DNA of 64,000 nt from Actinomycetota bacterium (GCA_028717265.1 JAQUOE010000005.1:4190-68189), one strand, 5' to 3'. Positions 16,811 to 41,248 are shown, counted from the stretch's first letter. Notes: generated from the sequence alone by a model not told the origin. Program-made: numbers and translations.

Positions 16811-17479
16811 ATGTATAAATTATTGAGTTATTATGTAAAGACAAATAACCCTAAATATCCCGGTCACCCGGGTAATGAGTTTGAAAGTGTATTGAAAATA
16901 GAAAAAGGGAATATTTGTAATTCAACAAGAATAAAACTATTTACTCATAACGATACGCATATTGATTCGCCATATCATTACAATACAAATGGCATAAAAG
17001 TCCATGAAATTAGCCCCGATAATTTTTTCTATAACAAAGTAGCAGTTGCAAACCTGGAAGGTAAAATTGGTAAAGAAATTACTATTTCTGATGTGGGAAA
17101 AATATCAGATGATGCTGATATGCTAATGATCCATACAGGCATTTCCAGATATTGGATTAATTCTCCCGAGGAATATGTTGCAAAAGAAAATCAACCCTGG
17201 ATATCAAGGGAACTTACAGATTATTTGATAAGGGAGAGCAATATAAAGGGCATAAGTGTCGATTTTATGAGCGTCGATAATATAGATGATATCGAAAATA
17301 AAGATCCTTTCGTACATCGGGTTTTTTTAGGTATGAATGATTTATCGAAAATCATTTTTATTTATGAAAATGTCAATATTAAAACAATATTGAATGAGAG
17401 TGTAAAAAAGATATATGCGTTCCCGCTGTTACTTTATGGATTAGATGGTGCGCCTGTTACTATGGTAGCTGAAATTTAA
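16811..17479 (+). CDS. cyclase-family protein (kynurenine-formamidase-like metal hydrolase), paralogue 1
   Basis: YPGHPG...HNDTHIDSPYH matches the HxGTHxDxPxH metal-binding motif of the PF04199 'putative cyclase' family. Confidence 0.75.
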   Translation: MYKLLSYYVKTNNPKYPGHPGNEFESVLKIEKGNICNSTRIKLFTHNDTHIDSPYHYNTNGIKVHEISPDNFFYNKVAVANLEGKIGKEITISDVGKISDDADMLMIHTGISRYWINSPEEYVAKENQPWISRELTDYLIRESNIKGISVDFMSVDNIDDIENKDPFVHRVFLGMNDLSKIIFIYENVNIKTILNESVKKIYAFPLLLYGLDGAPVTMVAEI

Positions 17480-17516
17480 TGTGTTACTAATTAAAAACGA
17501 TTATTTTATTTAAAGA

Positions 17517-18764
17517 ATGAAAAGTATTAAATTACCGCAAGGCGGAATATTCGATAAAAAAGACATAAAGCTTGATTTCCCAAAAAACTGGGATGTGGAG
17601 GTTTGCGATTCTCCTGCAAATAAAATGAAGGCCATTACTTCAAAAAAAATGTCTGATTTAATTAATAGTCCGGTTGGGTCCAGGACTATCAGAGAAGCTG
17701 CCCGTGATAAAAGTAAAGTGGTACTAATTATCGAAGATATCAGCCGTGGTACCAGGATAGATAAAGTTATCAAATTTATTCTTAAAGAGTTGATTTCAAC
17801 AGGCATAAGAGAAGATGAAATTGAAATAATTTGTGCCGTCGGGGCCCATGGTGCGCATGATCGTATAGATTTCGTTAAAAAGTTAGGTAAGGAAGTAGTA
17901 GAAAAATTTCCTGTTTATAATCACAATCCTTTTTTTAATTGTAAATATATAGGAAAAACAAGTAGAGGAACAAGAGTTCTGATAAATCCCGAGGTTCTGG
18001 AATGTGATTTAAAAATATCTGTCGGTACCATTGTTCCGCACCCTTTATTCGGATTTAGCGGAGGAGGAAAAATAATCCTTCCGGGCATATCGTCCATAGA
18101 AACCATATACAGCAATCATATATTAGAATCAGATTCCTTAAAAGGGATAAAGGGAAATTTTGTTGATGGATTGGGAAGAATTGAAAATAATGTAATGCAG
18201 AGAGAAATGGAAGAAGTATGTGAAATGGTCGGGATTGATTTTCTGGTCAACGCACTCGTGGATTATAATGGTGAAATCGTTGATCTGGTAGCCGGTCATC
18301 CTATTTATGCACATAAGGAAGGAGTTAAAAAAGCGAAGGAGATTTATGGCACAAGTTATAAATCAAAAGCAGATTTAGTTATAGCTAATGCTAATTTTAA
18401 AATCAATGAAGCGAATATAGCTCTGGCATTTGGAAAAAAGAGTCTGAAGAATAACGGAGATATTGTAATAATAAACCATTCAAGAATAGGCCAGGTTACA
18501 CATTATTTGTGTAGTGGGTTTGGATATAATTATGGAGGTAAATTCTGGAGTAAAGATAAAGGTAATACCACCAAAAATATAAATAAAGTAATTTTATTCA
18601 ATCCTTATATTAATAAAATAGATGAGGATTGGTTCGGAGGATTTGGAAAAGTCAAGTGGGCATCCGAATGGCAGGAAGTTATAAATTTATTGGATTATGA
18701 TTCTGATAATAACGTTTCGGTTAATTTATTTACAGATGCAACAATTCAATATTTCTTGAATTAA
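17517..18764 (+). CDS. LarA-family (lactate-racemase-like, DUF2088) protein, paralogue 1
   Basis: 415 aa. Conserved GTIVPHPLFGFSGGGKIILPG block (the GFSGGxK lysine region of LarA) and histidines in AVGAHGAHD. Confidence 0.7.
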   Translation: MKSIKLPQGGIFDKKDIKLDFPKNWDVEVCDSPANKMKAITSKKMSDLINSPVGSRTIREAARDKSKVVLIIEDISRGTRIDKVIKFILKELISTGIREDEIEIICAVGAHGAHDRIDFVKKLGKEVVEKFPVYNHNPFFNCKYIGKTSRGTRVLINPEVLECDLKISVGTIVPHPLFGFSGGGKIILPGISSIETIYSNHILESDSLKGIKGNFVDGLGRIENNVMQREMEEVCEMVGIDFLVNALVDYNGEIVDLVAGHPIYAHKEGVKKAKEIYGTSYKSKADLVIANANFKINEANIALAFGKKSLKNNGDIVIINHSRIGQVTHYLCSGFGYNYGGKFWSKDKGNTTKNINKVILFNPYINKIDEDWFGGFGKVKWASEWQEVINLLDYDSDNNVSVNLFTDATIQYFLN

Positions 18765-18826
18765 AAATTTAACCAATGTAGTTTTTAAAAACTATTTAAT
18801 TATAAAATATTATAGGAGAGTTTATT

Positions 18827-19585
18827 TTGGAATTTGATGAGAAAGTAATAGCCATAACAGGAGGAGGAACAGGAATAGGCAGAGCCATTGCCACCGGCTT
18901 TGCTAAAGAGGGTGCAAAAGTTATTATTTCCGGGAGACGGGAAAAACCTTTAAAGGAAATAAAATCCTTGATTGAAAAAATCAATAAAAATATTGAATAT
19001 ATGCAGGCTGACGTTAGTGATTCAGCTATGGTCGATAATTTTATTAATAAAGCAATTAAGCTTTATGGAAGTCTGGATGTCTTTATAAACAATGCAGCTG
19101 TAAGTATAGGTAAAAGCATAGTGGACACTACCGATGAAGATCTGGATTATGTGCTTTCGGTAAATTTGAAGGGTTATTTTTACGGAATGAGATCTGCTAT
19201 AAAAAAGTTTATAGAACTTAATAAAAAAGGCGTGATTATAAATATATCGTCGATTCTTGGACTGAAGGGTCATTTATACAGAGGTGCTTACTGTGCATCA
19301 AAAGCGGCAATAAATAATCTAACCAGATGTGCCGCCATGGAATATGCCGATAAGAATATAAGAATAAATGCAATATGCCCAGGAGTAATTGAAACAGATA
19401 TGGTCAAAACGCAGTGGGATTCACCGCCGGATCCTGTTAAAGAAATGTTAAAAGGCATACCAATGAATAGGATGGGAAGTTGTGATGAAGTCGCAAAATT
19501 GGTTTTGTTTCTTTCTTCAGAATCTTCTTCCTATATAACGGGTTCTGTTATCACGGTTGACGGAGGTTGGTCTGCAGGAAAATAA
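18827..19585 (+). CDS. SDR-family oxidoreductase
   Basis: ITGGGTGIGRAIA, NNAAV, YCASKAA motifs. TTG start with an aggag RBS. Confidence 0.85.
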   Translation: MEFDEKVIAITGGGTGIGRAIATGFAKEGAKVIISGRREKPLKEIKSLIEKINKNIEYMQADVSDSAMVDNFINKAIKLYGSLDVFINNAAVSIGKSIVDTTDEDLDYVLSVNLKGYFYGMRSAIKKFIELNKKGVIINISSILGLKGHLYRGAYCASKAAINNLTRCAAMEYADKNIRINAICPGVIETDMVKTQWDSPPDPVKEMLKGIPMNRMGSCDEVAKLVLFLSSESSSYITGSVITVDGGWSAGK

Positions 19586-19651: not shown

Positions 19652-20401
19652 ATGAAAGTTTTAAGTAAATGTTTCGGCATAATTGATTTAATAAAAAGCA
19701 AAGACATGAATTTGACTGAAATATCAAAAGAATTAAATATTAATAAAAGCACCGCTTATTCAATATTAAAAGATTTACAAAAATTTGGTTATGTATATAA
19801 GCTCAACACTAATAAGAAATACAGGCTTGGCTATAAGTTTTTTGAGATTTACAACTATTTAATAACTAAGATAGATTTAATGAAGGAAGCAGAGAAAATA
19901 GCCGATGAGTTAAATATATTGACAAATGAGACGATACACGTTGGAACCTTTATCAGCTCTAAAGTATATAATATTTATAAAAAAGAGAGCGATAAGCCGA
20001 TAAGAGTATATATCGAAGGATTCAAAGAAGTACCAATATATTGTACAGGTATCGGTAAAGCTATATTAGCAAATCAAAAAAAAGAAAAGATAGATGAAAT
20101 ATTAAATAAACTGGAATTTAAAAAATATACTAAAAATACAATTACTGATATGGATGATTTGAGAAGAGAATTAGAAAAAATAAAAAATTCCGGATATGCA
20201 ATTGACAACGAAGAGCATCAGGAAAATGTATGTTGTATTGCAACTCCTGTTAGAAATTATACAAATGAAGTAGTGGCTTCGATAAGTATCACATCGATTA
20301 AATATAAAACAGATGTTGATTATTTAGTGGATAAATACAAAAGTTTAATAATGCAAAAGGGTTTCGAGCTGTCTTTAAGGTTAGGTTACAATAATGATTA
20401 A
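19652..20401 (+). CDS. IclR-family transcriptional regulator
   Basis: N-terminal wHTH (LTEISKELNINKSTAYSILKDLQKFGYV) and a C-terminal IclR effector domain. Confidence 0.75.
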   Translation: MKVLSKCFGIIDLIKSKDMNLTEISKELNINKSTAYSILKDLQKFGYVYKLNTNKKYRLGYKFFEIYNYLITKIDLMKEAEKIADELNILTNETIHVGTFISSKVYNIYKKESDKPIRVYIEGFKEVPIYCTGIGKAILANQKKEKIDEILNKLEFKKYTKNTITDMDDLRRELEKIKNSGYAIDNEEHQENVCCIATPVRNYTNEVVASISITSIKYKTDVDYLVDKYKSLIMQKGFELSLRLGYNND

Positions 20402-20424
20402 ATTGAGTAAGGATAAAAAATAAT

Positions 20425-21960
20425 ATGAAAGTAAAAGAAAATAACTCTCTGGAACTGAAAAATATCAGTAAGCTTTACCCGGGAACGATAGCTTTAAGAA
20501 ATATTAACTTATCGATAAGCGGGGGATATATCCATGGCATAATTGGGAAAAATGGAGCCGGAAAATCAACATTAATAAACATTATTTCCGGCCTGACTTA
20601 TCCTTCCGAAGGCCTCATTTCTATAAATGGAAAAGAATATCCAAGACTTAGTAGGATTCTGTCTAAAAAGGAAAATATTGCTGTAATTACTCAAGAACCG
20701 CAATTAGTTCCCGAACATACAATTGTTGAGGCTTTATTCAGCCCTAATTATATCCAGAAAAACGGTATTATAAACTGGAAAAAGATGAAAGAGAAATCTG
20801 TTTCAATGCTCAATTCACCATTATTAAAAAAAATAAAAGGTAAAAGGGCTATTAGAGATTTAACAATAAGTGAGCAGCAATTGCTATTGGTTTTTAAAGC
20901 CATTAACCTGGAAGGTGCCAATATAATAATTTTAGATGAAACGACTGCTTCGTTGACGCAGGACGATCAGAATCTTCTATATGAATTCATAATAAATCAG
21001 AAAAATATGGGCAAATCAATAATTTTTATTACCCATAGGATGCAGGAGATTTTGGATATATGCGATAAAGTTTCTGTATTGCGTGATGGTGAGCTCATTA
21101 ATACCATTTCAACCAAAAATCTTAATATGGGAGAATTGTCCTCTTATATTATTGGGGATAGCAAGTTGGCAGAGATCGATAGTACAGATAGGAAAAAAAC
21201 AAAAAAGAAGATTTCCGATGAAACTGTATTACAGCTGAAAGATTTAAGCAAAATGGGCGATTTTATGAATATCAATTTGGAAATTAAAAGAGGAGAGATT
21301 GTTGGTCTTGCCGGTTTGAGAGGTAGCGGAAGGACGGAGTTATTTAATTCAATTATTGGTATAAATAATTTTGATACGGGTGTCTTAAAAGTAAAGAATG
21401 TGGAGAAAAAATTTAAAAGTCCTTCCGAGGCATTGGCCGGTGGGATAGCATATCTACCGGAAGAGAGAGATAGGGAGGGTATAGTAAATGAATTGGGAGT
21501 AATGGATAACCTGGTTTTAAGCTGTTTAAAAAAACTATGCGTTTTTAAAAATGTGGGAATTATCAAAGATAGCAAAAAGCGAGATCTGGCAAAAAATTTA
21601 ATAAAAAAACTATCCATAAAAACTATCTCACTTGATCAAAAAGTAAAGGATTTAAGCGGCGGCAATAAACAAAAAGTTGTTGTGGGAAAAATACTTTCCG
21701 TTATGCCGGATATATTTATATTGGACGAGCCAACCAAAGGAATAGATATAGAAGCAAAAAATAGCATATTAAATATAATTGAAAAAGACTTAAGCAGGGA
21801 AGCCGGTATTTTAATTACCTCACCGGGACTTGGAGATCTTATAAAAATTTGCGATAGGATAATAGTTCTTTTAAATGGGGAAATAGTTGAGGAAGTTGAG
21901 AGTAATAAATTTAATGAAAATAAAATTTATTTAGCGATGCAGGGTAAAATAAATTCATGA
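20425..21960 (+). CDS. sugar ABC transporter ATP-binding protein with duplicated ABC domains (CUT2; RbsA/MglA-like)
   Basis: Walker A GKNGAGKST in domain 1, LSGGNKQKV signature in domain 2. 511 aa fused tandem ATPase. Confidence 0.85.
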   Translation: MKVKENNSLELKNISKLYPGTIALRNINLSISGGYIHGIIGKNGAGKSTLINIISGLTYPSEGLISINGKEYPRLSRILSKKENIAVITQEPQLVPEHTIVEALFSPNYIQKNGIINWKKMKEKSVSMLNSPLLKKIKGKRAIRDLTISEQQLLLVFKAINLEGANIIILDETTASLTQDDQNLLYEFIINQKNMGKSIIFITHRMQEILDICDKVSVLRDGELINTISTKNLNMGELSSYIIGDSKLAEIDSTDRKKTKKKISDETVLQLKDLSKMGDFMNINLEIKRGEIVGLAGLRGSGRTELFNSIIGINNFDTGVLKVKNVEKKFKSPSEALAGGIAYLPEERDREGIVNELGVMDNLVLSCLKKLCVFKNVGIIKDSKKRDLAKNLIKKLSIKTISLDQKVKDLSGGNKQKVVVGKILSVMPDIFILDEPTKGIDIEAKNSILNIIEKDLSREAGILITSPGLGDLIKICDRIIVLLNGEIVEEVESNKFNENKIYLAMQGKINS

Positions 21961-22006
21961 CCATATTTCAATAAATATAAATAAGAAAGTATTCAGGAGG
22001 ATTACT

Positions 22007-23023
22007 ATGTCAAAGTTTTCAAAAATTTCATTGTGGTTAATTGAAAATATGATTTGGGTCATACTGTTAGTGTATGTTGTGATAAATATTTTTGTTACAC
22101 CAAAATTTGTGACTTATGGAAACATCACTAACATATTCTACCATTCTTCCGTATTAAGCATGTTGGTTTTAGCACAGGGGCTGGTTCTTTTATTGGGCTA
22201 TATGGATCTTTCAATAGAATCTACATTGGCTTTCGCACCGGTGATATCAGTACTATTGCTGGTTAAGTATATTCCGTGGATTACACCTGTTGGGGCAATC
22301 GTCTTGACTTTGCTTCTGGGATGTTTGGTTGGTGCATTTAACGGAACAATGATTACAAGATTTGGTATAAACCCTTTTTTACAGACATTATCACTTTTGA
22401 TAATACTCAGGGGCATTGTAATCTTCCTTTTACCGGTGTCGATATTTGAATTTAGTGATGTTTATAGTGCACCTGGAGCTTTGAGAACAATATTTAATAT
22501 TCCGGTGGCTGTTTTCATCATGATATTCGTATTCATAATTTTTCATTTTGTTCTAAATAAAACAATATTTGGCAGGCACCTTATTGCCACAGGCGGAAAT
22601 AATCTATCAGCATATATTTCCGGTGTAAATACAAAAAGAGTAGTATTTATAACATTTGTTATTAGTGGATTGCTGGCCGCATTAGCAGGTCTTATAATGG
22701 CAGGCAGGCAACAGGCTGTGACAAATGCGATGGGTGATGGAATGGTTTTTGAATCTTTTGCCGGGGCTATTTTAGGTGGAGTTAGTTTAAAAGGAGGCGT
22801 AGGTAAAGTTTCCGGAATGCTGGGAGGAGTCTTGCTGTTGGGTGCGATAGATAACTCATTAAATCTACTGGGCATTAACGTATTTTTAATCTATGCATCC
22901 AAAGGATTATTAATATTTGTTGCAATTGTATTGGATCAGGCAAAAGTTAAGCTGAAAAATTATATTTATTACCGTGAAGATATGAGAAGGTTTAAAGAAA
23001 CTAAGGAAATAGCAGGTGTTTAA
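22007..23023 (+). CDS. sugar ABC transporter permease (CUT2; RbsC-like)
   Basis: Polytopic membrane protein of the BPD_transp_2 type. Confidence 0.8.
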   Translation: MSKFSKISLWLIENMIWVILLVYVVINIFVTPKFVTYGNITNIFYHSSVLSMLVLAQGLVLLLGYMDLSIESTLAFAPVISVLLLVKYIPWITPVGAIVLTLLLGCLVGAFNGTMITRFGINPFLQTLSLLIILRGIVIFLLPVSIFEFSDVYSAPGALRTIFNIPVAVFIMIFVFIIFHFVLNKTIFGRHLIATGGNNLSAYISGVNTKRVVFITFVISGLLAALAGLIMAGRQQAVTNAMGDGMVFESFAGAILGGVSLKGGVGKVSGMLGGVLLLGAIDNSLNLLGINVFLIYASKGLLIFVAIVLDQAKVKLKNYIYYREDMRRFKETKEIAGV

Positions 23024-23148
23024 AAGCTTTATAAAAGTATATTTATATATTTAAGATTTTTATGAAATTTATTTACAAATCATTATATGTGAATGGCGAA
23101 AGTAAAAGAAGAAAGTTATGGATTCCGGTTCTAAAAGCCATAAAACTT

Positions 23149-23181
23149 CTTACTCCCTGCAATCATGTTATCGGGAGTAAG
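23149..23181. repeat. hairpin CTTACTCCC-N15-GGGAGTAAG in the permease-SBP spacer
   Basis: Seen directly. The same stem sequence recurs in the hairpin downstream of the SBP gene (24591..24626). Confidence 0.3.
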
Positions 23182-23408
23182 ATTTGAAATAAAACAATTA
23201 TTTTAATAGTCTAATACATAGTATAGGGGGAGGTGGTAAAATTTTAATTAAAAATAATATTATTAAAAATAAGAGTGTATTAAAAGGAGATGATAGTAAG
23301 AATAAAAAAATGAGATTTGCTTTAAATTTGTGTAGCGCATGCTCCATTTAAAAACAAATCTCGAGGATATTATAATAATGGGTCACAATTAAATCAAGGA
23401 GTATCAAA

Positions 23409-24566
23409 ATGAAAAAGTTATTAATTACATTAGTTATAGTGTGCTTGGTTTCTTCCATAATATTTATAGGTTCAGGGTGTAAGGCAGAGGAAACTCAGGC
23501 AGAAGAAGTTGGAGAGGAAACTCAAGCAGAAGAAACTCCGGCAGAAGAAGTCACTGAGGCAGATATTGGTGATGAAGATATAGTGATCGGAGCCAGTTTC
23601 CGTGTATTGACCACAGAGTTCCATAATGCTATTAACGTTGCTGCAGAGAAAAAAGCTGAAGAGCTGGGAATAGGATATTTGAGTGTAACAAGCGGGAATT
23701 CTCCGGAGAAACAAATTTCACAAATGGAGAACTATATTTCTCTTGGAGTTGACGGATTTCTTCAGGGCGGAACTATTGATAATAGAGCCATTGTCCCGGG
23801 TATCGAGGCATTGAATGCAGCAAATATTCCAGTAGTTGGTGTTGATTCAAAGCCAGCTGGTGGAAAAATGGAATTGTTTATCAGTTTTGATAATGTAAGA
23901 GCTGCTGAACAGGCTGGTGAAGCGATGATCAAAGTATTAAAAGAGGAAAATGGCGGTGTGTTGCCTGAAAAAGGTGTGATAGTAGAAATTACCGGAGATT
24001 TGAGGGATACTGCGCAAGCTTTGAGGCATGAAGGTTTTGATAATGTCGTTAACGAAGATTTATATCCACAGTTTACAATTGTTCAGGGTGAAGGTAAATG
24101 GAATCCAGATGAGGCATTTCAAGTTACTTCTGATATATTCACAAAATATGGCGACGATATAATAGCCTTATATGCACATACAGACCAAATGTTTTCGGGT
24201 ATATTTTCAGCAATCGAACAGGCAGGTTATGATCCTGCAGATTTAGTGGTAACCAGTATGGATGCTAATTCAGCTGGTCTGACTTATATGGAAGAAGGTT
24301 TAATTGATGCATTACCTATTCAGGATGCTGCATCTTATGGCGCTCTGGCAGTAGAATATCTGTATAAGAAAATAATGGGAGAGGAGATGCCGGAAGTCGG
24401 TGATACAGTTACAGTAGAAGGCGAATTGTGGTCACCTGCCATGATAGTAGAAGATGAAGAAGGTGTATGCCCAATAATGCTTCTGAACAGTCCTATCGTT
24501 CCCTGGGATGTGCCTACAACTGATCCCAGAATATGGGGTAATATAGCAAGAGGAATAACCGAATAA
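23409..24566 (+). CDS. sugar ABC transporter substrate-binding lipoprotein (CUT2; RbsB-like PBP)
   Basis: Signal peptide with a FIGSGC lipobox, then an acidic EETQAEE repeat linker, then a type I periplasmic binding protein fold. Confidence 0.8.
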   Translation: MKKLLITLVIVCLVSSIIFIGSGCKAEETQAEEVGEETQAEETPAEEVTEADIGDEDIVIGASFRVLTTEFHNAINVAAEKKAEELGIGYLSVTSGNSPEKQISQMENYISLGVDGFLQGGTIDNRAIVPGIEALNAANIPVVGVDSKPAGGKMELFISFDNVRAAEQAGEAMIKVLKEENGGVLPEKGVIVEITGDLRDTAQALRHEGFDNVVNEDLYPQFTIVQGEGKWNPDEAFQVTSDIFTKYGDDIIALYAHTDQMFSGIFSAIEQAGYDPADLVVTSMDANSAGLTYMEEGLIDALPIQDAASYGALAVEYLYKKIMGEEMPEVGDTVTVEGELWSPAMIVEDEEGVCPIMLLNSPIVPWDVPTTDPRIWGNIARGITE

Positions 24567-24590
24567 CATTCATTAGCTATATATTAGATA

Positions 24591-24694: not shown

Positions 24695-25726
24695 ATGAAA
24701 GCTGTATTTTTGGAAGAACCAAAAAAAATATCAATACGGGAAATACCTGAGCCAACTTGTTCTGATGATAAGGTGATCATCAGAATAAAGAGGGTCGGGA
24801 TATGTGGAAGTGATGTACATTTTTTTAATGATGGCAGAGTAGGCGATTTCGTTATGAAAGAGCCTTACATATTGGGCCACGAGAGTTCAGGAGTAATAGA
24901 AGAAGTTGGAAAAAACGTTAAAAATTTTAAAGTTGGTGATCGTGTAAGCATAGAGCCGGGTGTTCCTTGTTATAAATGTAATTTCTGCCTGGAAGGCAGA
25001 TATAATTTGTGTAAAAAAGTCGTATTTATGGATGTTCCTGGATGTGACGGAGCTTTAAGAGAATTGATAGAATATGATCCTAATTTTATTTATAAAGTAT
25101 CAGATAATGTAAGCCTTACGCAGGCAGCTCTGGTTGAGCCCCTTGCAGTTGGATATTTTGCTATATCAAAAGCAAAAATATTACCGGGGGACAAAATTTT
25201 TATATTGGGGTCCGGACCAATTGGTATAGCTATTTTAGAGATGGCAAGGATTGCCGGTGCTTCTGAAATATTTATTTCAGATATAAATGAATATAGATTG
25301 AAAGTTGCGAAGGAGCATGGTGCAAAATATACATTAAATCCCGGTAAGATAGATATAGAAAAATTTGTTTCGGACAAAACAGAAGGCCTCGGGGCAGATG
25401 TTGCAATCGAAGCTGCGGGTTCAGAAGAAACTATCAGGCAATCTTTAAGAGTTGTAAAAAGTGGCGGTAAAGTAGTATGGGTAAGTGTAGGAAAAGAGGA
25501 AATAACTATTCCTTTTCAAAAGATTATTTTTAATGAGCTAAGAGTGGAAGGAATAAATAGATATGCTAATTCATATAAAAGAGTTATTGAATTATTGGAA
25601 AATGGATTAGTTAATTTCGAATCATATGTATCAAAAAGAATTAAATTAGAAAACGTAGAGGAAGCTTTTAAGATTGCAAATGATCCTGAAGCTGAAGTTA
25701 TGAAAATAGTTATAGAAATAGATTAG
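24695..25726 (+). CDS. zinc-dependent MDR dehydrogenase (sorbitol/threonine-DH-like)
   Basis: GICGSDVHFF, GHESSG and CYKCNFC motifs, GSGPIGIA Rossmann. Confidence 0.8.
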   Translation: MKAVFLEEPKKISIREIPEPTCSDDKVIIRIKRVGICGSDVHFFNDGRVGDFVMKEPYILGHESSGVIEEVGKNVKNFKVGDRVSIEPGVPCYKCNFCLEGRYNLCKKVVFMDVPGCDGALRELIEYDPNFIYKVSDNVSLTQAALVEPLAVGYFAISKAKILPGDKIFILGSGPIGIAILEMARIAGASEIFISDINEYRLKVAKEHGAKYTLNPGKIDIEKFVSDKTEGLGADVAIEAAGSEETIRQSLRVVKSGGKVVWVSVGKEEITIPFQKIIFNELRVEGINRYANSYKRVIELLENGLVNFESYVSKRIKLENVEEAFKIANDPEAEVMKIVIEID

Positions 25727-25785
25727 GGGAGTATTAGCTTAAAGTTGTTAATGCATCGAATAGTTCTTACTGAAAGGAGGAAATT

Positions 25786-31973: not shown

Positions 31974-33230
31974 TTAGATATGTTAATCATAGGCGGAGGT
32001 CCGGCCGGATTAGCTGCAGCTATTAAAGCTAAAGAAAGCGGGATTGATAATTTAATGGTAATAGAGAGATCCGAGGAATTAGGAGGTCTGTTACATCAAT
32101 GCATACACAACGGATTCGGATTGCACTATTTCAAAGAAGATCTAACAGGTCCTGAATATGCTTTAAAGTTTATAAACAAAGTAGATAAACTTGGTATCAA
32201 TTATCTTTTAAAGACAATGGTATTGGATATTACACCTGATAAAAATGTGTTTGCCATTAATTCTGAAAATGGATTAATAAAATTTTCACCTAAGACTATT
32301 GTACTGGCTATGGGTTGCAGAGAAAGAACGAGATACAACATATTAATACCCGGTACAAGACCGGCGGGTATTTTTACGGCCGGTAATGCCCAGAGACTGA
32401 TTAATGTCGAAGGTTATATACCTGGCGATCAAGTTGTAATCTTAGGATCCGGTGATATCGGTATGATAATGGCACGCCGATTGACACTTGAGGGGGCCGA
32501 AGTTAAAGCTGTTGTAGAAATTTTACCATACATAGGCGGTCTTATTAGAAATGAAGTTCAGTGTTTGAATGATTTTAATATCCCTACTTTTTTGGAACAT
32601 ACGGTCACTGAGGTTTATGGATCAGACAGGATAGAAGGTGTAGAAATAAATCGTATCGATAAAAATGGGAAAAAAACACTCAGTACGGGTAGATACATAA
32701 AATGCAATACTCTTCTTCTGTCTGTCGGTTTGATACCGGAAAACGAGCTTTCGATTAAGGCAGGGGTAGAAATCGACCAGGTAACAGGCGGGCCTATTAT
32801 AGATGAAAATATGCAGACAAATGTTCCAGGAATATTTGCCGGTGGTAATGTTGTTCACGTTCTTGATTTAGCAGACAATGTAAGCCTGGAATCAGAAATT
32901 GCCGGATTAAGTGCTTCAAAGTATTTATCGGGCGAACTTCACCGTTCACATAAAAAAATAAAAGTAAGTGCCGGCAAAGGTATAAGATATGTTGTCCCTC
33001 ATTACATAAGCGGCAAAGAGGGGATCAATCTGTATATGAGAGTCTCAAATCCGGAAGAAAATGCAACTCTTAAAATTACGGATAAATTTAATAATAAAAT
33101 TATTTATGAGAAAAAATTTCAAGCTTTAAAGCCCAGCGAAATGGTATGTACCATGATTACTGAAGATAATATTAATCTTATAAATAATGAATCCGGTGAA
33201 ATTATCATATCCTGTAATAAGAAAGAATAA
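31953..33230 (+). CDS. NAD(P)/FAD-dependent oxidoreductase (pyridine nucleotide-disulfide family) partner subunit
   Basis: IIGGGPAGLAAA and ILGSGDIGM dual dinucleotide folds. Start overlaps the upstream gene's stop. Confidence 0.7.
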   Translation: MVMNSKKLDMLIIGGGPAGLAAAIKAKESGIDNLMVIERSEELGGLLHQCIHNGFGLHYFKEDLTGPEYALKFINKVDKLGINYLLKTMVLDITPDKNVFAINSENGLIKFSPKTIVLAMGCRERTRYNILIPGTRPAGIFTAGNAQRLINVEGYIPGDQVVILGSGDIGMIMARRLTLEGAEVKAVVEILPYIGGLIRNEVQCLNDFNIPTFLEHTVTEVYGSDRIEGVEINRIDKNGKKTLSTGRYIKCNTLLLSVGLIPENELSIKAGVEIDQVTGGPIIDENMQTNVPGIFAGGNVVHVLDLADNVSLESEIAGLSASKYLSGELHRSHKKIKVSAGKGIRYVVPHYISGKEGINLYMRVSNPEENATLKITDKFNNKIIYEKKFQALKPSEMVCTMITEDNINLINNESGEIIISCNKKE

Positions 33231-33232
33231 AA

Positions 33233-33604
33233 ATGAATATAAAAAAAATCATATGTCTGGGGTGTCCCCTTGCTTGTAATATTAACGTAGAAATTAATAA
33301 AGATGAGATAATGAGAGTCAGGGGAGCTAAATGTAAAGTTGGGAAAAAGTATGCAATTCAGGAGTGTAAAGAACCAAGGCGCGTACTCACAACTACCATA
33401 AGGACTACAGAAGCAGACAGACCTCTTTTACCGGTAAGGACCGGAGATTCCATACCGAAAGAATCGATCGCTGAATGCATGAAAATTATGTCAAAGAAGA
33501 TAATAAGTCCGACTATAAAAGCCGGTGATATTGTAATAGAAAATATATCAGGTACCGGCGTGAATGTAATAGCGACCGGAAATCTTTTTGGTTCAGAAAA
33601 GTAA
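33233..33604 (+). CDS. DUF1667-like Cys-rich small subunit
   Basis: CLGCPLAC...C..G motif. Third member of the GlpA-like triad seen in anaerobes. Confidence 0.6.
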   Translation: MNIKKIICLGCPLACNINVEINKDEIMRVRGAKCKVGKKYAIQECKEPRRVLTTTIRTTEADRPLLPVRTGDSIPKESIAECMKIMSKKIISPTIKAGDIVIENISGTGVNVIATGNLFGSEK

Positions 33605-33639: not shown

Positions 33640-34305
33640 ATGTTTGCATTAATTTCTTACCCGATCGGGGAAAAAGAGACCGTTCCATATAAAATAGAGC
33701 CCAAACCAAAATTAATCCCTAAAGCACGAATTTCAAAAGGTGATATAAATAATACAAGTATGCTGGAAATGAGTGTTCATGGGGGTACTCATATTGACGT
33801 TCCTTTTCATACAGACCCAAACGGATTGACGATAGATAAAATGGATATCCAGGATTTTATATTTGAAAGTCCTCTGCTGATAGAATGCCGGAAAAGTGAT
33901 TTTGAAACAATAACCAGGGAAGATTTGATCCCATTTTGCAAAGATTTAGAAAAAGCCGATTTTTTAATGATATATTCAGGTTTTAGTGAGTACAGATTTA
34001 CTGATTCAGATAGGTTTATCAATAACTCATGCGGTATTTCAAAAGATGGAGCTGAATATCTCGTAAATAATTTTAATTTAAGAGGCGTGATGGTTGATTT
34101 TCTTGGAGTCGAGAATATAAATGAAGGTCTTGAAAAAGGTTTCAAGGCTCATGAGGTATTCTTAGCAAGGGGAAAGAAATTTATTGTTGTAGAAGATGGA
34201 AATTTTAAGCATATTTTAAATAAAGAAATAAAAAGAGTATTTATCATACCTTTGATGCTGGTAGGTGCAGAAGCGTCTCCGGTTACTGCATTTGTTGAAA
34301 TATAA
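33640..34305 (+). CDS. cyclase-family protein, paralogue 2
   Basis: HGGTHIDVPFH motif. Strong RBS ggagg. Confidence 0.75.
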   Translation: MFALISYPIGEKETVPYKIEPKPKLIPKARISKGDINNTSMLEMSVHGGTHIDVPFHTDPNGLTIDKMDIQDFIFESPLLIECRKSDFETITREDLIPFCKDLEKADFLMIYSGFSEYRFTDSDRFINNSCGISKDGAEYLVNNFNLRGVMVDFLGVENINEGLEKGFKAHEVFLARGKKFIVVEDGNFKHILNKEIKRVFIIPLMLVGAEASPVTAFVEI

Positions 34306-34394: not shown

Positions 34395-35891
34395 AAATGC
34401 TAAATTGTGATGTTTTAATAGTGGGCAGTGGTGTCGTAGGTTCCAGCGTTGCAAGAGAACTTTCTAAATATGAAATAGAAATAATATCAGTCGAGAAAAA
34501 TTCTGATGTCGGATTCAGCAATACAAGCAGAGGAAGTGCCGGTTGGATTCATTCAGGTATTGGTTCCGGAGTCGGATTTTTTGGTGACCTTGCCAACAAA
34601 TTGATAGTGCCTGGAAATAGGATGATGGATCGGTTATGTAAAGAATTAGAGGTACCTTTTGCGCGAAAGGCCGAGATCTTCGTAGCAAGAAGCGAAGAAG
34701 CAGAAAAAGTTTTTAAAGATTTCGAATCACAGGGTTTGAAAAACGGAGTAAAGGGCATAAAGATATTAAAGAAAGACGAACTTGTAGAAATAGAACCATA
34801 TATAACGGAAAAAGCCAGATCAGGTTTTTTCTCCCCGTCATCAGGAGTGGTCTCGCCCTGGGAACTAATATATGCTCAAGTCGAGAATTCTAAGGAAAAT
34901 GGAGCCGAAGTTCTTTCAGGCACCGAAGTAAGAAATATTACCAGAGATAACAATGGAAAGTTAATCGTAGAAACGACTGATGGCGAAATAAGCACAAAAT
35001 ATGTAATAAATTCAGCAGGTCTGTGGGCAGATACTGTTGCCAGCATGGTCGGCGATAACACTTTCGAAATAATTCCAAGAAAAAGCCAGGCACTGATCAC
35101 CGATAAGATATCAGGGAAATTAGTGAAGAATATATTTTTTGATGCCAGCCAGTGGATAAAACCATATACAGGAACTTGTATCGGACCCTCAACAGAAGGC
35201 AATATTTTCATTACCGGAAATGATGCGGAGGCAAATTCAAAAACCGATATTGCTGACAGCGCCGGTGCCATAAAGAATATGATAAAATACGCGAGAGACC
35301 TGTTTCCTTCAATAACATCTAAAGATATCATTAGATATTATACAGGTATTCGTGCCTTAAATACCCTGAAAAATGATTTTATCATTGAGCCATCAAAAGT
35401 ATTGCCCCAGCTAATAAATGTCCAGGCCGGGAGCGGGGGCATGACCTGTTGCATAGCTATAGCAAAATATGTGGCAGAGATATTAAAAAAAGAAGGCTTG
35501 AACCTGGTCAATAAATCCGATTTCAATCCAAATAGAAAAGCCATACCCAGACCAGTAGAGTCATCAGAAGAGGAAATTACGGAACTTATAAAGAAAGACC
35601 CAAGATATGGGCATATCGTTTGTCGCTGTGAGCATGTTAGCGAAGGAGAAATTGTAGAGGCTATAAAAAGGGGAGCCAGGACTGTGGACGGTATAAAATT
35701 CAGGACAAGAGCCGGGATGGGTCGCTGTCAGGGTGGCTTCTGCTCTTCCCGTATTCTTAAAATCATTTCGCGTGAATTAAATGTTCCGGTGACCAGCATC
35801 AATCAAAAAGAAAAGGATAGTGAACTTGTCTTATTTAAGACTAAAGATTTACTGACAATCGGAAAGAAAGATGGTCATGAATAGTAAAAGG
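34395..35891. repeat. ~1.5 kb perfect direct repeat, copy B
   Basis: Identical to 30477..31973. Confidence 0.9.
34397..35884 (+). CDS. FAD-dependent oxidoreductase with BFD-like domain (GlpA-like), copy 2
   Basis: Protein 100% identical to copy 1. Followed only by a vestigial 'MVMNSK...' start of the partner gene. Confidence 0.75.
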   Translation: MLNCDVLIVGSGVVGSSVARELSKYEIEIISVEKNSDVGFSNTSRGSAGWIHSGIGSGVGFFGDLANKLIVPGNRMMDRLCKELEVPFARKAEIFVARSEEAEKVFKDFESQGLKNGVKGIKILKKDELVEIEPYITEKARSGFFSPSSGVVSPWELIYAQVENSKENGAEVLSGTEVRNITRDNNGKLIVETTDGEISTKYVINSAGLWADTVASMVGDNTFEIIPRKSQALITDKISGKLVKNIFFDASQWIKPYTGTCIGPSTEGNIFITGNDAEANSKTDIADSAGAIKNMIKYARDLFPSITSKDIIRYYTGIRALNTLKNDFIIEPSKVLPQLINVQAGSGGMTCCIAIAKYVAEILKKEGLNLVNKSDFNPNRKAIPRPVESSEEEITELIKKDPRYGHIVCRCEHVSEGEIVEAIKRGARTVDGIKFRTRAGMGRCQGGFCSSRILKIISRELNVPVTSINQKEKDSELVLFKTKDLLTIGKKDGHE

Positions 35892-37611: not shown

Positions 37612-38361
37612 TTATATTACTTCAACCCCAAGATCTGTTATTTTTTTATATAAATTCTCGGGAAGGTTTGAGTCAACGATTACCTTATCGAAAATAGAAA
37701 TACTGCCAATGCTGCTTATATTTATTTTACTGAATTTTGTACTATCTGCTATTAATACTTTATATTCTGCTTTCATAAGCAGCTTCATTTTTAAATTGGC
37801 TAATTCAAAACTTGTAATCATAACATTCATTTCTGAAGATATTGAATCGCATGCCATAAAGGCTATATTAGCATGTATTTCTTCAATAGTTTTTTCAGCT
37901 AACGGACCTATAAGACTATTTGTATCTAAATGCAATTTACCTCCCGTAAGTATTACAACCACGTTTTTTACATTAGATAATTGTCTTGCAATATAAATAG
38001 AAGGAGTTATTACTGTTAATTTTTTAACTTCTCTTATATTTCTGGCCAGCATAGATGATGTTGAGCCTGAATCAATTATTATAATTTGGTTGTCTTTTAT
38101 TAATTCGGCTGCTTTTCTGGCTATTTCCTCCTTTTTCTCCCTGTTAATATTCAATCTGCTTTCAAAGGAAGGTCTGGCATAGTCGAGTGATGTTGCACCA
38201 CCGTGCCATCTTTCAATCAGGCCTATCTTTTCCAAGTCCAATAGATCACGCCTGAGGGTAGAAGTGGGTATGTCTGTTTCTTTTTTCAAATTTTGGATTG
38301 TTATGAAACCTTTTTCAATTATAGTTGTTTTTAATTTGTCCAGCCTGTCTTTTTTCTTCAA
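37612..38361 (-). CDS. DeoR/GlpR-family transcriptional regulator
   Basis: N-terminal DeoR HTH (ITIQNLKKETDIPTSTLRRDLLDLE) and a C-terminal DeoR sugar-binding domain. Confidence 0.8.
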   Translation of the reverse strand: MKKKDRLDKLKTTIIEKGFITIQNLKKETDIPTSTLRRDLLDLEKIGLIERWHGGATSLDYARPSFESRLNINREKKEEIARKAAELIKDNQIIIIDSGSTSSMLARNIREVKKLTVITPSIYIARQLSNVKNVVVILTGGKLHLDTNSLIGPLAEKTIEEIHANIAFMACDSISSEMNVMITSFELANLKMKLLMKAEYKVLIADSTKFSKINISSIGSISIFDKVIVDSNLPENLYKKITDLGVEVI

Positions 38362-38635: not shown

Positions 38636-39517
38636 ATGAGTAAAGAAATTAAAGGGATTATCCCGCCATTATTAACCAGTTTTGATAAGAATGGCAATAT
38701 ATATAAAAAGGGACAGAGAGAAATAATAGAATTCATATTGCCATACATCGATGGCGTGTATCCGTGTGGAACATATGGCTCTGGCCCTCTCATGAGTTCT
38801 GATGAGCGCAAGACAGTTGCAGAGATAATTATTGAACAAATAAACGGAAGAGTTCCCGTCATTATACATGTTGGAGCTGCAAGCACGAGAGAAACGGTTG
38901 AACTGGCAAAACATGCCGCAAAAGCTGGCGCAGATGCAGTGGGTGCTATTGCCCCTTACTATTACAGTTATAATGAAAAGGAATTATTAAATCATTATAA
39001 AATATTAATCGACTCGGTGAATATACCTGTATTTTTGTATAATAATCCACATACTTCAGGTAATAGTATTTCTCCCGGGGTATTGAACGAGCTGGCAAAA
39101 TATAATCTTGCGGGGATAAAAGATAGTGCTTTTGACCTGGTTAATTTTTATTTATACCAGATTGAAGTAGATAATCCGAATTTCAAATTTATTATTGGAA
39201 CTGAAGCTATAGCAATGGCTTCTTTCATGTCCGGCGCAAAAGCAGCAATTTGTGGCGTTGCCAATGTGATACCGGAACCGCTTCATAAATTTTGGGAATT
39301 AGTTCAGAGAAAGGAATGGGAAGAAGCACAAAAATTTCAGATGGAAATACTTAAAATAAGAAAAGTTATGAAAATGGGATCAACACTCACAAATTGTTAT
39401 GCTATTTTAAAAATCAGGGGCATAGATAGCGGTTGGCCGCGGATGCCATATCTTCCGGTAGATGATATGCTGCAGAATAAAATAAAAGCTGAATTGTTAA
39501 AGCTTAATGTTATTTAA
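38636..39517 (+). CDS. DHDPS/NAL-family class I aldolase, paralogue 2
   Basis: IIPPLLTSF, GVYPCGTYGSG, and the Lys context GIKDSAFD. Confidence 0.8.
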   Translation: MSKEIKGIIPPLLTSFDKNGNIYKKGQREIIEFILPYIDGVYPCGTYGSGPLMSSDERKTVAEIIIEQINGRVPVIIHVGAASTRETVELAKHAAKAGADAVGAIAPYYYSYNEKELLNHYKILIDSVNIPVFLYNNPHTSGNSISPGVLNELAKYNLAGIKDSAFDLVNFYLYQIEVDNPNFKFIIGTEAIAMASFMSGAKAAICGVANVIPEPLHKFWELVQRKEWEEAQKFQMEILKIRKVMKMGSTLTNCYAILKIRGIDSGWPRMPYLPVDDMLQNKIKAELLKLNVI

Positions 39518-39545
39518 GCCGGATAAATGAAAAAATATTAAAAGT

Positions 39546-40538
39546 ATGGATTTTCTTATGGATAAAGTTTTAATTTGTTCGAGTTCTTTCGGAAAATTTA
39601 CGGATATAGGTTTAGGTTTATTGAAGAAAAATAATTATAAAATTATAATCAATGAGCTCGGAAGAGGTTTCAAAGAAGATGATTTTTTCCCTTATATCAA
39701 AGACATTGAAGGCATGATTGTGGGGAGTATGGATGAAGTCACTAAAAAGGTGATCGAGGCAGGTAAAAGATTAAAGGTTATATCTGTTCATGGCAAGGGA
39801 ACTGATAATATTGACATCGAATGTGCGACTGATCATGGTGTTTATGTTGCTAATGCAGGTAAATCAGAGAATAATAAAATAGCAGTTGCAGACTTAACAT
39901 TTGGTTTGATTTTATCGATTGCTCGAAATATTCCTACTGCCAATGAAATGGTAAAAAACTGTGTTTGGCAAAGAATAGTCGGGAAAAATGTGGGCAAAAA
40001 AGTTATTGGAATAATTGGTGCCGGTGAAATTGGGAAAGAAGTAATAAAGAGAGCAAAAGGATTTGAAATGGAGGTACTGGTAAATGATTTATTCGAGGAC
40101 CAATATCTGCTGAAGAACTATAAAGTAAAATACACGACTTTGGATTATTTATTAAAAAATTCAGATTTCATATCAATAAACGTAACACTGACAAGTGATA
40201 CTGAAAAATTAATTAGTGATAGAGAATTTAACTTAATGAAGCCCGGTGCTTTCCTGGTTAATACATCCAGGGGTAAAGTAATCGATGAGAAAGCTTTGTA
40301 CAATGCTTTAAAGGAGAATAAAATAGCAGGTGCGGCTATAGATGTTTATAACGCCGAGCCTATAAAAGCGACGGATCCTTTACTTAAACTTGATAATATA
40401 ATCACCACTCCGCACTATGGATTACACACTATTGAATCTCTTGAAGAAGTTGATTATATTTCAGCGAAAAATGTAGTTGATGCATTAAGAGGTGAAAAAC
40501 TGATAAATGCGCTAAATGATCCGATTAGTATTGATTAA
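39546..40538 (+). CDS. D-isomer-specific 2-hydroxyacid dehydrogenase (PGDH-like)
   Basis: GIIGAGEIGKEV NAD-binding loop and the catalytic region ...TPHYG. Confidence 0.8.
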   Translation: MDFLMDKVLICSSSFGKFTDIGLGLLKKNNYKIIINELGRGFKEDDFFPYIKDIEGMIVGSMDEVTKKVIEAGKRLKVISVHGKGTDNIDIECATDHGVYVANAGKSENNKIAVADLTFGLILSIARNIPTANEMVKNCVWQRIVGKNVGKKVIGIIGAGEIGKEVIKRAKGFEMEVLVNDLFEDQYLLKNYKVKYTTLDYLLKNSDFISINVTLTSDTEKLISDREFNLMKPGAFLVNTSRGKVIDEKALYNALKENKIAGAAIDVYNAEPIKATDPLLKLDNIITTPHYGLHTIESLEEVDYISAKNVVDALRGEKLINALNDPISID

Positions 40539-40573
40539 CATGGCAAACGATGAGTTTTTTCAAGGAGGAAAAA

Positions 40574-41248
40574 ATGATAGTCGAATTATCGTATTTAATT
40601 GGCGATTTGAATCCGGTTGAAATGTTAGGATTGTTAAAACCCGATATTAAATGGAGAGCAAGGTTTGGAGATGGTCAGGGCAAAAGCAATCAAACAAGTA
40701 ATATAGAAATGTCCAGTCATAATGGTACACACATAGATGCTCCATTTCATGTTTTAGAGAATGGAAAAAAAATAACGGATTTCGATATTTCCAATTTTTA
40801 TTTCGAAAAGGTTTTAGTTATTGATTGCGAAAAGAAAGACCTTGAAAAAATAGAGATAAATGACCTGAAACCTTATGAGAAGAATTTAAAAAATATTCAA
40901 TTATTGTTGATTTATACTGGTTTTAGCAAGTACAGATTTACGGAGACGGAAAGATATATAAAAAAATCACCGGGCTTTTCAATTGAAAGTGCTAAATTTA
41001 TTAAAAACAATTTTCCGAATATTAGATGTATCGGCGTTGATCTTATGGGTATTGAGAATATTATTGAAGGTAGGGAATCAGAATGGGTAATTCATAAAAT
41101 ATTATTTGAGGGTAATTCTAATTATTTTCATATTGAAGATATGAATGTTAAACCTGTTGCAGATAAAGAAGTTAAGAGAGTATTCATAGGACCAATCAGG
41201 TTTATTGGGTTGGAAGCTTCTCCCGTTACGATTATGGCAGAAATCTAG
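40574..41248 (+). CDS. cyclase-family protein, paralogue 3
   Basis: HNGTHIDAPFH motif. Start placed at the ATG six nt after the aaggagg RBS (the ORF track's upstream start is less likely). Confidence 0.75.
   Translation: MIVELSYLIGDLNPVEMLGLLKPDIKWRARFGDGQGKSNQTSNIEMSSHNGTHIDAPFHVLENGKKITDFDISNFYFEKVLVIDCEKKDLEKIEINDLKPYEKNLKNIQLLLIYTGFSKYRFTETERYIKKSPGFSIESAKFIKNNFPNIRCIGVDLMGIENIIEGRESEWVIHKILFEGNSNYFHIEDMNVKPVADKEVKRVFIGPIRFIGLEASPVTIMAEI

Follow-up and report, generated by a model that had tools for sequence, protein, structure and literature searches.

What do metal-dependent hydrolases of the "putative cyclase" family (Pfam PF04199) do in the middle of a carbohydrate island? The question is raised by a 64,000-nucleotide (nt) stretch of DNA from an Actinomycetota bacterium (GCA_028717265.1, JAQUOE010000005.1:4190-68189; "the window" below means this whole 64-kb stretch), which carries three open reading frames (ORFs) of the family, here called cyc1, cyc2, and cyc3 in order of position. 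Automatic annotation routinely gives PF04199 proteins the names "kynurenine formamidase," "arylformamidase," or "cyclase," and an earlier reading of this DNA (the sequence-only reading) had proposed for the three an undescribed role, for example that of a lactonase. Here, we report that cyc2 and cyc3, as judged from the gene neighborhoods of their relatives, belong to a conserved sugar-catabolic cluster of anaerobic bacteria and archaea, and that the cyclase of this clade most likely, though we say so tentatively, opens a sugar-acid lactone hydrolytically at its ester bond. The three ORFs are as follows.

16811..17479, + strand: cyc1, 222 amino acids (aa); PF04199 metal hydrolase, a divergent paralogue that opens a + strand operon
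33640..34305, + strand: cyc2, 221 aa; PF04199 metal hydrolase; in a clade shared with cyc3
40574..41248, + strand: cyc3, 224 aa; PF04199 metal hydrolase; belongs to the conserved-cluster clade

Three intact hydrolases of the cyclase fold

The presence of three cyclase-family ORFs at these positions, as the sequence-only reading had it, is borne out by translation, motifs, family scores, and distal ligands. All three reading frames are stop-free on translation, and Pfam assigns them to PF04199 "Cyclase" with 66, 74, and 83 bits against a cutoff of 23.1 (E 6e-18 to 4e-23). The motifs read HNDTHIDSPYH in cyc1, HGGTHIDVPFH in cyc2, and HNGTHIDAPFH in cyc3. The two distal ligands of the KynB-type (kynurenine formamidase) site are also kept, His169/Glu186 in cyc1 numbering corresponding to His174/Glu188 in cyc3 numbering, and HxGTHxDxPxH with the distal His and Glu (six metal ligands) is found in cyc1–3 and is invariant in 37 relatives. 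The start of cyc3 is the ATG at 40574 and not the upstream 40550, given an AGGAGG Shine-Dalgarno sequence 7 nt upstream and the N-termini of homologues.

The AlphaFold2 model of cyc3 has a pLDDT of 94.4, and in a Foldseek search with it all 34 matches at E ≤ 0.001 are chains of PF04199 structures. The template modeling (TM) scores against solved PF04199 structures, 0.67-0.84 at 13-26% identity, are about equal throughout; the top-ranked match is the Ruegeria cyclase-phosphotriesterase, and KynB is no closer than isatin hydrolase. By motif and predicted fold, cyc1–3 are intact metal-dependent hydrolases of the cyclase/KynB fold. They are also, by their sequences, old paralogues and not recent copies, because pairwise identity is only 31% (cyc1-cyc2), 30-31% (cyc1-cyc3), and 44% (cyc2-cyc3); recent duplication was rejected on the same 30-44% identities.

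Relation to kynurenine formamidase

Are they simply kynurenine formamidases, as several clade members are called in databases (others being "arylformamidase" or "cyclase")? The similarity to KynB (PDB 4CO9/4CZ1, 4COB, 4COG) is real: the fold is common to the cyc3 model (TM 0.75-0.77 query-normalized, 0.81-0.84 target-normalized), the size is alike (~210-225 aa), and the HxGTHxDxPxH motif and distal His/Glu, which bind two Zn2+ in KynB, are common to all three. The best solved relative in a sequence search is likewise the Bacillus anthracis KynB, although only at E 4e-11. By sequence comparison, however, cyc1–3 are not bona fide kynurenine formamidases, because they score 55.3, 44.0, and 48.8 bits on the NCBIfam arylformamidase equivalog TIGR03035 (cutoff 223), fall outside the KynB group in the tree, and have no tryptophan/kynurenine genes nearby. 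In the neighbor-joining tree, a rough one (midpoint-rooted, without bootstrap), cyc2 and cyc3 group together in a single clade. There, cyc1 joins P0070 and P0071 in a basal group that is not part of this clade but shares its side of the midpoint root, and B. anthracis KynB, 1R61, and 8HMO fall across the root from all three. Genes for tryptophan 2,3-dioxygenase, kynureninase, or other tryptophan/kynurenine enzymes were found neither in the window nor in any annotated related locus. Tight clustering with KynB in tryptophan/kynurenine genomes, the outcome which the sequence-only reading had named as speaking against it, was looked for in tree and gene context and was not seen.

Further differences from KynB are the identity of only 16-24%, the setting of the cyc genes in sugar-acid clusters of anaerobes and not among tryptophan-pathway genes, and the clade's invariant YTGFSKYR insertion, IEN, HK, and EDxN, where KynB has RTSS, VDP, HH, and ENV. 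The clade motif recurs as LLIYTGFSKYW, together with the HK dyad, in MJ0783 (PDB 2B0A, Methanocaldococcus jannaschii), an uncharacterized PF04199 protein which, judging from these residues, may be the nearest solved structure to the cyc2/cyc3 branch in functional terms. MJ0783 and the Bacillus "metal-dependent hydrolases" 1R61/3KRV/8HMO match the cyc3 model with query-normalized TM scores of 0.67-0.74; the Bacillus proteins are uncharacterized members too, and 1R61 and 8HMO are grouped with KynB in the tree, unlike cyc1–3.

A word-indexed search for relatives gave 68 clusters for cyc3, 13 for cyc2 (overlapping the cyc3 set), and 2 foreign ones for cyc1. An exhaustive profile search of 1.84 billion representatives gave 183 clusters (50% identity) at E ≤ 1e-30, 1,810 at 1e-10, and 5,564 at 1e-3. 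On these searches the cyc2/cyc3 clade is a rare, small, uncharacterized branch of PF04199.

A conserved sugar-catabolic neighborhood

Loci were taken from contig look-ups, a genome scan, and a metagenome scan (15-sequence alignment), and were mapped by BLAST against the window's own proteins plus seeds of aldehyde:ferredoxin oxidoreductase (AFOR) and DeoC. The neighborhood set comprises 22 lineages, i.e., the window's cyc3 locus and 21 foreign ones, non-redundant at 85% identity and at least 5 kb each. A scan of the genome collection with the three paralogues returned mostly remote cyclases and spurious short motif matches (Roseomonas and similar), which served as negative controls only. The genes around the clade's cyclases are the following.

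Dihydrodipicolinate synthase (DHDPS)-type aldolase: 17/22 clade lineages
CUT2 ATP-binding cassette (ABC) transporter ATPase: 17/22
FGGY kinase: 16/22
AFOR: 14/22
D-2-hydroxyacid dehydrogenase (2-HADH): 13/22
Vicinal oxygen chelate (VOC) protein: 13/22; in 12 it directly follows the cyclase, the gaps running from -20 to +44 nt
Short-chain dehydrogenase/reductase (SDR): 11/22, directly upstream of the cyclase in 6, at 15-30 nt in the best cases
Divergent GntR-FCD regulator: 7/22
DeoC-type aldolase pairs: 5/22
IlvD/Edd dehydratase: 4/22

DHDPS, 2-HADH, FGGY, AFOR, and VOC genes were found in none of 15 control loci with KynB-side cyclases. Two arrangements recur. Variant I has the order IlvD/Edd-DHDPS-substrate-binding protein (SBP)-permease-SDR-cyclase-ATPase-FGGY-IclR, with the cyclase starting 15-30 nt after the SDR; it is complete in loci L093 and L098, and only part of it is seen in L072 and L089, whose IlvD or DHDPS gene is truncated or lies beyond the range covered. 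Variant II reads FGGY / GntR / cyclase-VOC-(ferredoxin)-AFOR-DHDPS-2HADH, to which two DeoC genes and a HAD gene may be added, and is seen in metagenome-assembled genomes (MAGs) labeled Desulfurococcales (L075) and Odinarchaeota (L144) as well as on numerous unassigned contigs. Loci L073, L078, and L124 mix the two forms, MAGs labeled Aerophobetes are also among the lineages with the same cyclase neighbors, and the cyc3 cluster of the window belongs to variant II but lacks AFOR. The cluster AFOR is nearest to classical aldehyde:ferredoxin oxidoreductases. The VOC partner is an orthologous family of its own, with an invariant H10/E57/H78/E124 tetrad in glyoxalase-I-type spacing, and is equally remote from glyoxalase I and methylmalonyl-CoA epimerase (PDB profile search, 32-52 bits). 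The invariant cyclase residues are identical in SDR-adjacent and VOC-adjacent members, which argues for a single chemistry across both.

The 2-HADH stays beside the cyclase even in relatives of 30-34% identity (L002 with a 4-nt overlap, L128/L132, L139, L138/L140), and the closest homologues of cyc2 (56-63%) lie in SDR-cyclase-DHDPS-2HADH clusters. The neighbors named for cyc1–3 by the sequence-only reading are all there (the LarA-like gene at 17517; DAO, Pyr_redox_2, and DUF1667 genes at 30479-33604; DHDPS-like and 2-HADH genes at 38636-40538), and its claim of a recurrent sugar- or hydroxy-acid placement holds for the DHDPS and 2-HADH of cyc3 at the frequencies listed above. It does not hold for the GlpA-like triad beside cyc2, which stands by a cyclase only in contigs of the window's organism and in 0/21 foreign lineages and was rejected as a functional partner for that lack of conservation. 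LarA adjacency has one foreign recurrence (L126, cyclase-VOC-LarA-AFOR; Lar_N E 5e-36). For cyc1, there are only two close homologues, on short contigs, one of them beside an RraA-like gene (PF03737).

On this synteny, the cyc2/cyc3 clade is part of a conserved sugar-catabolic cluster of anaerobes, both bacterial and archaeal; neither this cluster nor a PF04199/cyclase-family sugar lactonase turned up in the literature searched, which was mostly without subscription-journal papers. The partnership with VOC and AFOR, absent from the sequence-only reading, is the most interesting lead.

Some relatives show other surroundings. Distant ones (31-34%) lie in nonulosonic-acid/polysaccharide biosynthesis clusters (NeuB, CMP-transferase, flippase) at L138 6165-10421 and L140 6168-9286, in the order 2-HADH, NAD-epimerase-family gene, cyclase, and a HAD gene follows downstream, in L140 as the very next gene; stops and starts of 2-HADH, epimerase, and cyclase overlap or abut. 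The pairing of 2-HADH with the cyclase therefore predates the catabolic cluster. Tandem pairs of divergent cyclases are seen at L139 8001-10574 (with a DUF362 gene between), L128 8652-9985, and L132 9617-11247, adjoining a CUT2 ABC transporter with 2-HADH and the 2-keto-3-deoxy-galactonate kinase-like DGOK (L139) or 2-HADH and DHDPS (L128, L132). In the Odinarchaeota-labeled MAG (L144 9708-11522), phosphotransferase system (PTS) EIIA_2 and EIIC-GAT (galactitol/ascorbate-type) permease genes adjoin the cyclase-VOC-AFOR cluster; the EIIC-GAT type serves the lactone L-ascorbate in Escherichia coli. PTS genes are odd for an archaeon, and mis-binning or transfer might account for them.

A sugar-acid lactone as the proposed substrate

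What, then, would such a cyclase hydrolyze? In the scheme which we prefer, a water or hydroxide activated by metal at the His/His/Asp/His plus His/Glu site would attack the acyl carbonyl of a sugar-acid lactone and release the free 2-hydroxy-carboxylate (aldonate), which could then be dehydrated and cleaved to pyruvate and an aldehyde, or be epimerized or oxidized at C2. The cyclase would thus be a non-orthologous replacement of SMP30-type or amidohydrolase-2-type sugar lactonases. The partners fit, as IlvD/Edd, YagE-like aldolase, 2-HADH, LarA-type epimerases, and FCD-type GntR sensors all act on 2-hydroxy- or 2-oxo-carboxylates. The case is strongest in variant I and in cluster A of the window, because dehydrogenase, dehydratase, and aldolase are present there, the lactonase alone is missing among the steps, and no enzyme but the cyclase is left unassigned. 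Variant I is a non-phosphorylative route (a kinase is also present) in which only the lactonase step is unfilled. In the window, cluster A is a + strand run that begins with cyc1 and ends with DGOK, cluster B holds the GlpA-like triad, cyc2, and a second GlpA-like gene, and cluster C surrounds cyc3. Their other genes, in order, are listed here.

17517..18764, + strand (A): LarA-like homologue of Ni-pincer 2-hydroxyacid racemases/epimerases, 37 nt past cyc1; Lar_N E 1.6e-50
18827..19585, + strand (A): SDR dehydrogenase; passes the broad "glucose 1-dehydrogenase" subfamily model
19652..24566, + strand (A): IclR regulator and CUT2-type ABC sugar transporter (ATPase, permease, Peripla_BP_4 binding protein), by Pfam
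24695..30337, + strand (A): Zn-dependent alcohol dehydrogenase (Zn-ADH), SDR, IlvD/Edd dehydratase, DHDPS-type aldolase, DGOK
30479..33604, + strand (B): triad of GlpA-like DAO+BFD, Pyr_redox_2 (GlpB-like), and DUF1667 genes, upstream of cyc2
34397..35884, + strand (B): second GlpA-like gene, a nucleotide-identical copy (repeat 34396-35889 = 30478-31971)
37612..38361, - strand (C): DeoR regulator, transcribed away from the cyc3 operon; the related cluster L073 also begins with a DeoR gene
38636..39517, + strand (C): DHDPS/NAL-family aldolase, closest among solved structures to E. coli YagE (2-keto-3-deoxy-sugar-acid aldolase)
39546..40538, + strand (C): D-isomer-specific 2-HADH, directly upstream of cyc3
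41290..41691, + strand (C): small VOC (glyoxalase-I-like) protein with H/E/H/E metal tetrad, 41 nt past cyc3; the clade's conserved downstream partner
41789..43636, + strand (C): two more VOC proteins and a C_GCAxxG_C_C protein
43692..47748, + strand (C): two SDRs, FGGY kinase (xylulokinase-like), ARMT1-like damage-control phosphatase; families as in related clusters

By family assignment, the genes at 24695..30337 form an oxidative route from sugar to 2-keto-3-deoxy-acid without a recognizable lactonase, and cyc1, which opens this LarA/SDR/ABC/IlvD/DHDPS/DGOK cluster, probably acts there as the clade's cyclases would in theirs. Among the window ORFs scanned with Pfam, no lactonase of the SMP30/SGL, amidohydrolase-2, or metallo-beta-lactamase (Lactamase_B) type was found, and the SGL, Amidohydro_2, and Lactamase_B families were likewise not detected in the annotated related loci. 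The window has at least nine candidate sugar dehydrogenases. Only the glucose 1-dehydrogenase subfamily (three SDRs) and dihydroxy-acid dehydratase (IlvD/Edd) thresholds of NCBIfam are passed by the neighbors, and no NCBIfam match to them pinpoints a sugar substrate. The SDRs upstream of the cyclase score alike with FabG, glucose 1-dehydrogenase, and gluconate 5-dehydrogenase in a PDB profile search, so sequence does not tell oxidation at C1 from that at C4/C5. The LarA-like gene stays below all equivalog cutoffs; its superfamily includes D-gluconate 2-epimerases (PMC7583248). We infer the lactone substrate, the order of the pathway, and the equivalence of the three paralogues from gene context.

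Would lactone opening be new to the family? The sequence-only reading names amide and cyclic-amide hydrolysis as what the family is known for, which is outdated, since PF04199 also holds a metal-dependent carboxylesterase, MGS0169 (PDB 5IBZ; PMC5341072), a phosphotriesterase (8F9X; PMC12135135), and, as cited in PMC5341072, the Zn-dependent trans-dienelactone hydrolase of Pseudomonas reinekei MT1. Lactone and ester chemistry thus has precedent in PF04199, and novelty would lie only in a sugar lactone as substrate. The dienelactone hydrolase and MGS0169 show that the fold can cleave lactones and carboxyl esters with a divalent metal, although their substrates are aromatic-pathway or model esters and not sugars. 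As far as PMC5341072 describes them, the trans-dienelactone hydrolase and MGS0169 have a modified QxxxQxDxxxH motif, whereas cyc1–3 keep HxxxHxDxxxH and so fall outside that subgroup. MGS0169 is also larger (~320 aa) and is the most distant structural match of the cyc3 model (TM 0.52-0.72, 13-15% identity; 5IBZ profile E 0.4).

The canonical sugar lactonases, i.e., SMP30/gluconolactonase (PF08450), the amidohydrolase-2 type (L-fucono- and L-rhamnono-lactonase), and the metallo-beta-lactamase type, offer an analogy of position and proposed role, as their genes too stand beside those for aldose dehydrogenase, sugar-acid dehydratase, and 2-keto-3-deoxy-acid aldolase. Their folds are unrelated to cyc1–3, and the likeness would be functional only. 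Pfam placed none of cyc1–3 in PF08450, PF04909, or PF00753, and no such match appeared in the cyc3 fold search; the sole Pfam match besides PF04199 was a sub-threshold chance hit of cyc1 to PHA-1 (17.2 bits, cutoff 26).

Several points weigh against a lactonase. Variant II (e.g., L075, L100, L116, L125, L136, L144) has no recognizable aldose dehydrogenase or sugar-acid dehydratase, so no gene there would be an obvious source of the lactone or of the aldolase substrate; Pfam scans of its unlabeled ORFs returned transposase, HAD, PurH, FloA, radical SAM, transport, and one phosphotriesterase (PTE)-family match and no dehydratase. That scan of unlabeled neighbors covered the first 25 of 62 families, and a rare canonical lactonase could escape it. 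The PTE-family gene (PF02126, phosphotriesterase/lactonase-like; L100 12595-13521, - strand), directly after AFOR, is a possible alternative lactonase. The most constant neighbor of the cyclase is VOC and not a dehydrogenase. Spontaneous hydrolysis of sugar lactones is common, above all in thermophiles, and lessens the need for an enzyme of its own. Please note as well that cyc1 has almost no comparators and that the GlpA-triad context of cyc2 is not conserved. The lactonase activity of the clade members is a prediction from context and is unproven. It is nevertheless the most economical reading, and of the sequence-only reading's suggestion the conserved sugar-acid context of cyc2 and cyc3 stands, while the novelty of lactone chemistry in this family does not.

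Other reactions considered

The constancy of the VOC neighbor invites a broader scheme, which we regard as possible but rather unlikely. The cyclase and the downstream VOC protein would form a glyoxalase-like module of two enzymes (an isomerase or eliminase with a hydrolase) that would turn a sugar-derived lactone or 2-oxo-aldose hemiacetal into a (keto-deoxy) sugar acid without net redox change; the YagE-like aldolase would cleave the product, and the ferredoxin-linked, tungsten-type AFOR would oxidize the freed aldehyde. Gluconolactone, glucosone, and 2-keto-3-deoxygluconate are isomers. The likelihood given to this module overlaps with that given to lactone opening, and the two are not additive.

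Somewhat less likely, in our view, is a glyoxalase-II analogue, in which VOC would make a 2-hydroxyacyl thioester from a 2-oxoaldehyde-thiol adduct, the cyclase would hydrolyze it to a D-2-hydroxyacid (e.g., D-lactate), and 2-HADH would oxidize or LarA racemize that acid. The pairing of a metallohydrolase with a directly downstream VOC (12/22, gaps as above) does mirror the glyoxalase I/II pair, in which a small H/E/H/E VOC metalloenzyme is likewise encoded directly beside a metal-dependent acyl hydrolase; the VOC tetrad is in place, its nearest PDB entries are called "putative glyoxalase I," and the expected D-2-hydroxyacid product matches the co-encoded 2-HADH (13/22), with LarA-like genes beside cyc1 and in L126. 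Yet the cyclase of variant I, identical in its invariant residues, stands without any VOC, the VOC proteins are no nearer to glyoxalase I than to methylmalonyl-CoA epimerase and are under the glyoxalase I thresholds, and VOC_1 and VOC_2 of the window have no NCBIfam match at E 1e-10. Glyoxalase II itself has a metallo-beta-lactamase fold and a THxHxDH motif, neither of which the cyclases have; no thioesterase is known in PF04199, and no thiol cofactor or methylglyoxal synthase is encoded nearby.

An amidase in the manner of KynB or isatin hydrolase, which would strip an N-formyl or N-acyl group or open a lactam (e.g., of an N-acyl amino sugar or nonulosonic acid, with cleavage by the NAL-like DHDPS to follow), is an improbable alternative to lactone opening. 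Amidases are the sole well-studied activities with the classical HxxxHxDxxxH motif, the best NCBIfam match of the DHDPS neighbor is N-acetylneuraminate lyase (175 bits, under the cutoff of 281), and the distant relatives P0062 and P0063 lie in NeuB/CMP-transferase nonulosonic-acid clusters. Against this, genes for a deaminase, aminotransferase, or amino-sugar kinase are absent from the clusters, the CUT2 transporter belongs to a type for neutral monosaccharides, YagE is the nearest match of the aldolase, and the KynB equivalog score is far under its cutoff; N-formylkynurenine in particular requires O2-dependent dioxygenases, which are unlikely in AFOR-encoding lineages.

We consider it very unlikely that the cyclase is a C-C hydrolase. 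Here the SDR would oxidize a 2-keto-3-deoxy sugar acid at C4, and the cyclase, replacing the FAH-family hydrolase of the known route, would split the 2,4-diketo-3-deoxy acid into pyruvate and a 2-hydroxyacid (lactate, glycolate, or glycerate). Such products would suit 2-HADH and LarA, an SDR adjoins the cyclase in 6/22 lineages and by sequence is inseparable from 2-keto-3-deoxy-acid dehydrogenases, and no FAH-family gene is found in the clusters; the near-universal DHDPS aldolase would then become redundant, the aldose dehydrogenase and lactonase steps would be left unencoded in variant I, and C-C hydrolysis is without precedent in PF04199.

Finally, that these are ordinary KynB-like or housekeeping hydrolases with no functional link to their neighbors is scarcely credible: almost all genes at 13-63 kb are carbohydrate-related, so that any gene has such neighbors, and the GlpA-triad context of cyc2 is not conserved, but the same neighbors come back beside the clade's cyclases in no fewer than 21 other lineages and not beside KynB-side ones, the gene spacing points to co-transcription, and for cyc2 and cyc3 coincidence is largely refuted, indeed effectively excluded, by the synteny statistics.

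Further features of the window

The GC content of the window is 32-41%, and its source is, by the NCBI label, a MAG of "Actinomycetota bacterium" (68-kb contig). Its first 1-12 kb are housekeeping (GGDEF, lipoate ligase, FabZ/D/G/F, AccD/A, and PknB-PASTA with PP2C), and from ~12 kb to its end nearly all genes are carbohydrate-related. Just upstream of cyc1, two short overlapping ORFs (16047-16364 and 16361-16651; - strand, 16047-16651 together) are probably, to judge from their sequences, a broken gene, i.e., a pseudogene; the gene call matching the former has a PNP_UDP_1 (nucleoside phosphorylase) match and the latter none.

Around cyc2, an exact 1494-bp direct repeat (30478-31971 and 34396-35889) spans the entire GlpA-like (DAO+BFD) gene, and its copies flank the GlpB-like gene, DUF1667, and cyc2 (a 3918-bp unit, ~1.4 copies). 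Four independent metagenome contigs with cyc2 stop inside this repeat on either side; the repeat-unique-repeat order is therefore real, and short-read assemblies break there. In the cyc3 cluster, the adjacent SDR genes 43692-44456 and 44492-45241 share 268 nt of 5' sequence without a mismatch (43705-43972 = 44502-44769) and a further block that is nearly identical, and their 3' substrate-binding halves diverge, which looks like gene conversion or a mosaic tandem duplication.

Farther downstream, the - strand carries a BadF-type ATPase, a GFO/IDH/MocA oxidoreductase, an AP_endonuc_2 gene, and LacI (48268-53174). A 128-aa ORF (53705-54091) is an FCD/FadR_C ligand-binding domain alone, i.e., a GntR-type regulator without its DNA-binding domain, and at 54344-59610 lie an SBP_bac_1 ABC system, a Zn-ADH, and another AP_endonuc_2. 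The pairing of GFO/IDH/MocA with TIM-barrel genes across 48268-59610 resembles 3-keto-sugar or anhydro-sugar pathways. A cyclase-free hydroxy-acid/sugar module (59686-63677) adds another LarA-like gene (59686-61014) and another D-2-hydroxyacid dehydrogenase (61101-62117), each the second of its kind, together with one more AP_endonuc_2 TIM-barrel gene and the beginning of a GFO/IDH/MocA gene.

Implications for the PF04199 family

The lactonase idea is a reasonable one, chemically less novel than the sequence-only reading assumed, and unproven. If it is true, a sugar-acid role for a defined branch of PF04199 would correct the annotations as kynurenine formamidase or arylformamidase, a "missing lactonase" gap in the oxidative sugar pathways of anaerobes and archaea would be filled, and a third or fourth unrelated fold would join the known sugar lactonases. 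If the VOC-cyclase module proves true, it would be an undescribed dehydratase-free sugar-acid pathway common to anaerobic bacteria and archaea (Desulfurococcales- and Odinarchaeota-labeled MAGs). The cyclase-VOC-AFOR-aldolase-2HADH-FGGY-ABC cluster is conserved across domains and offers a cloneable target for pathway discovery.

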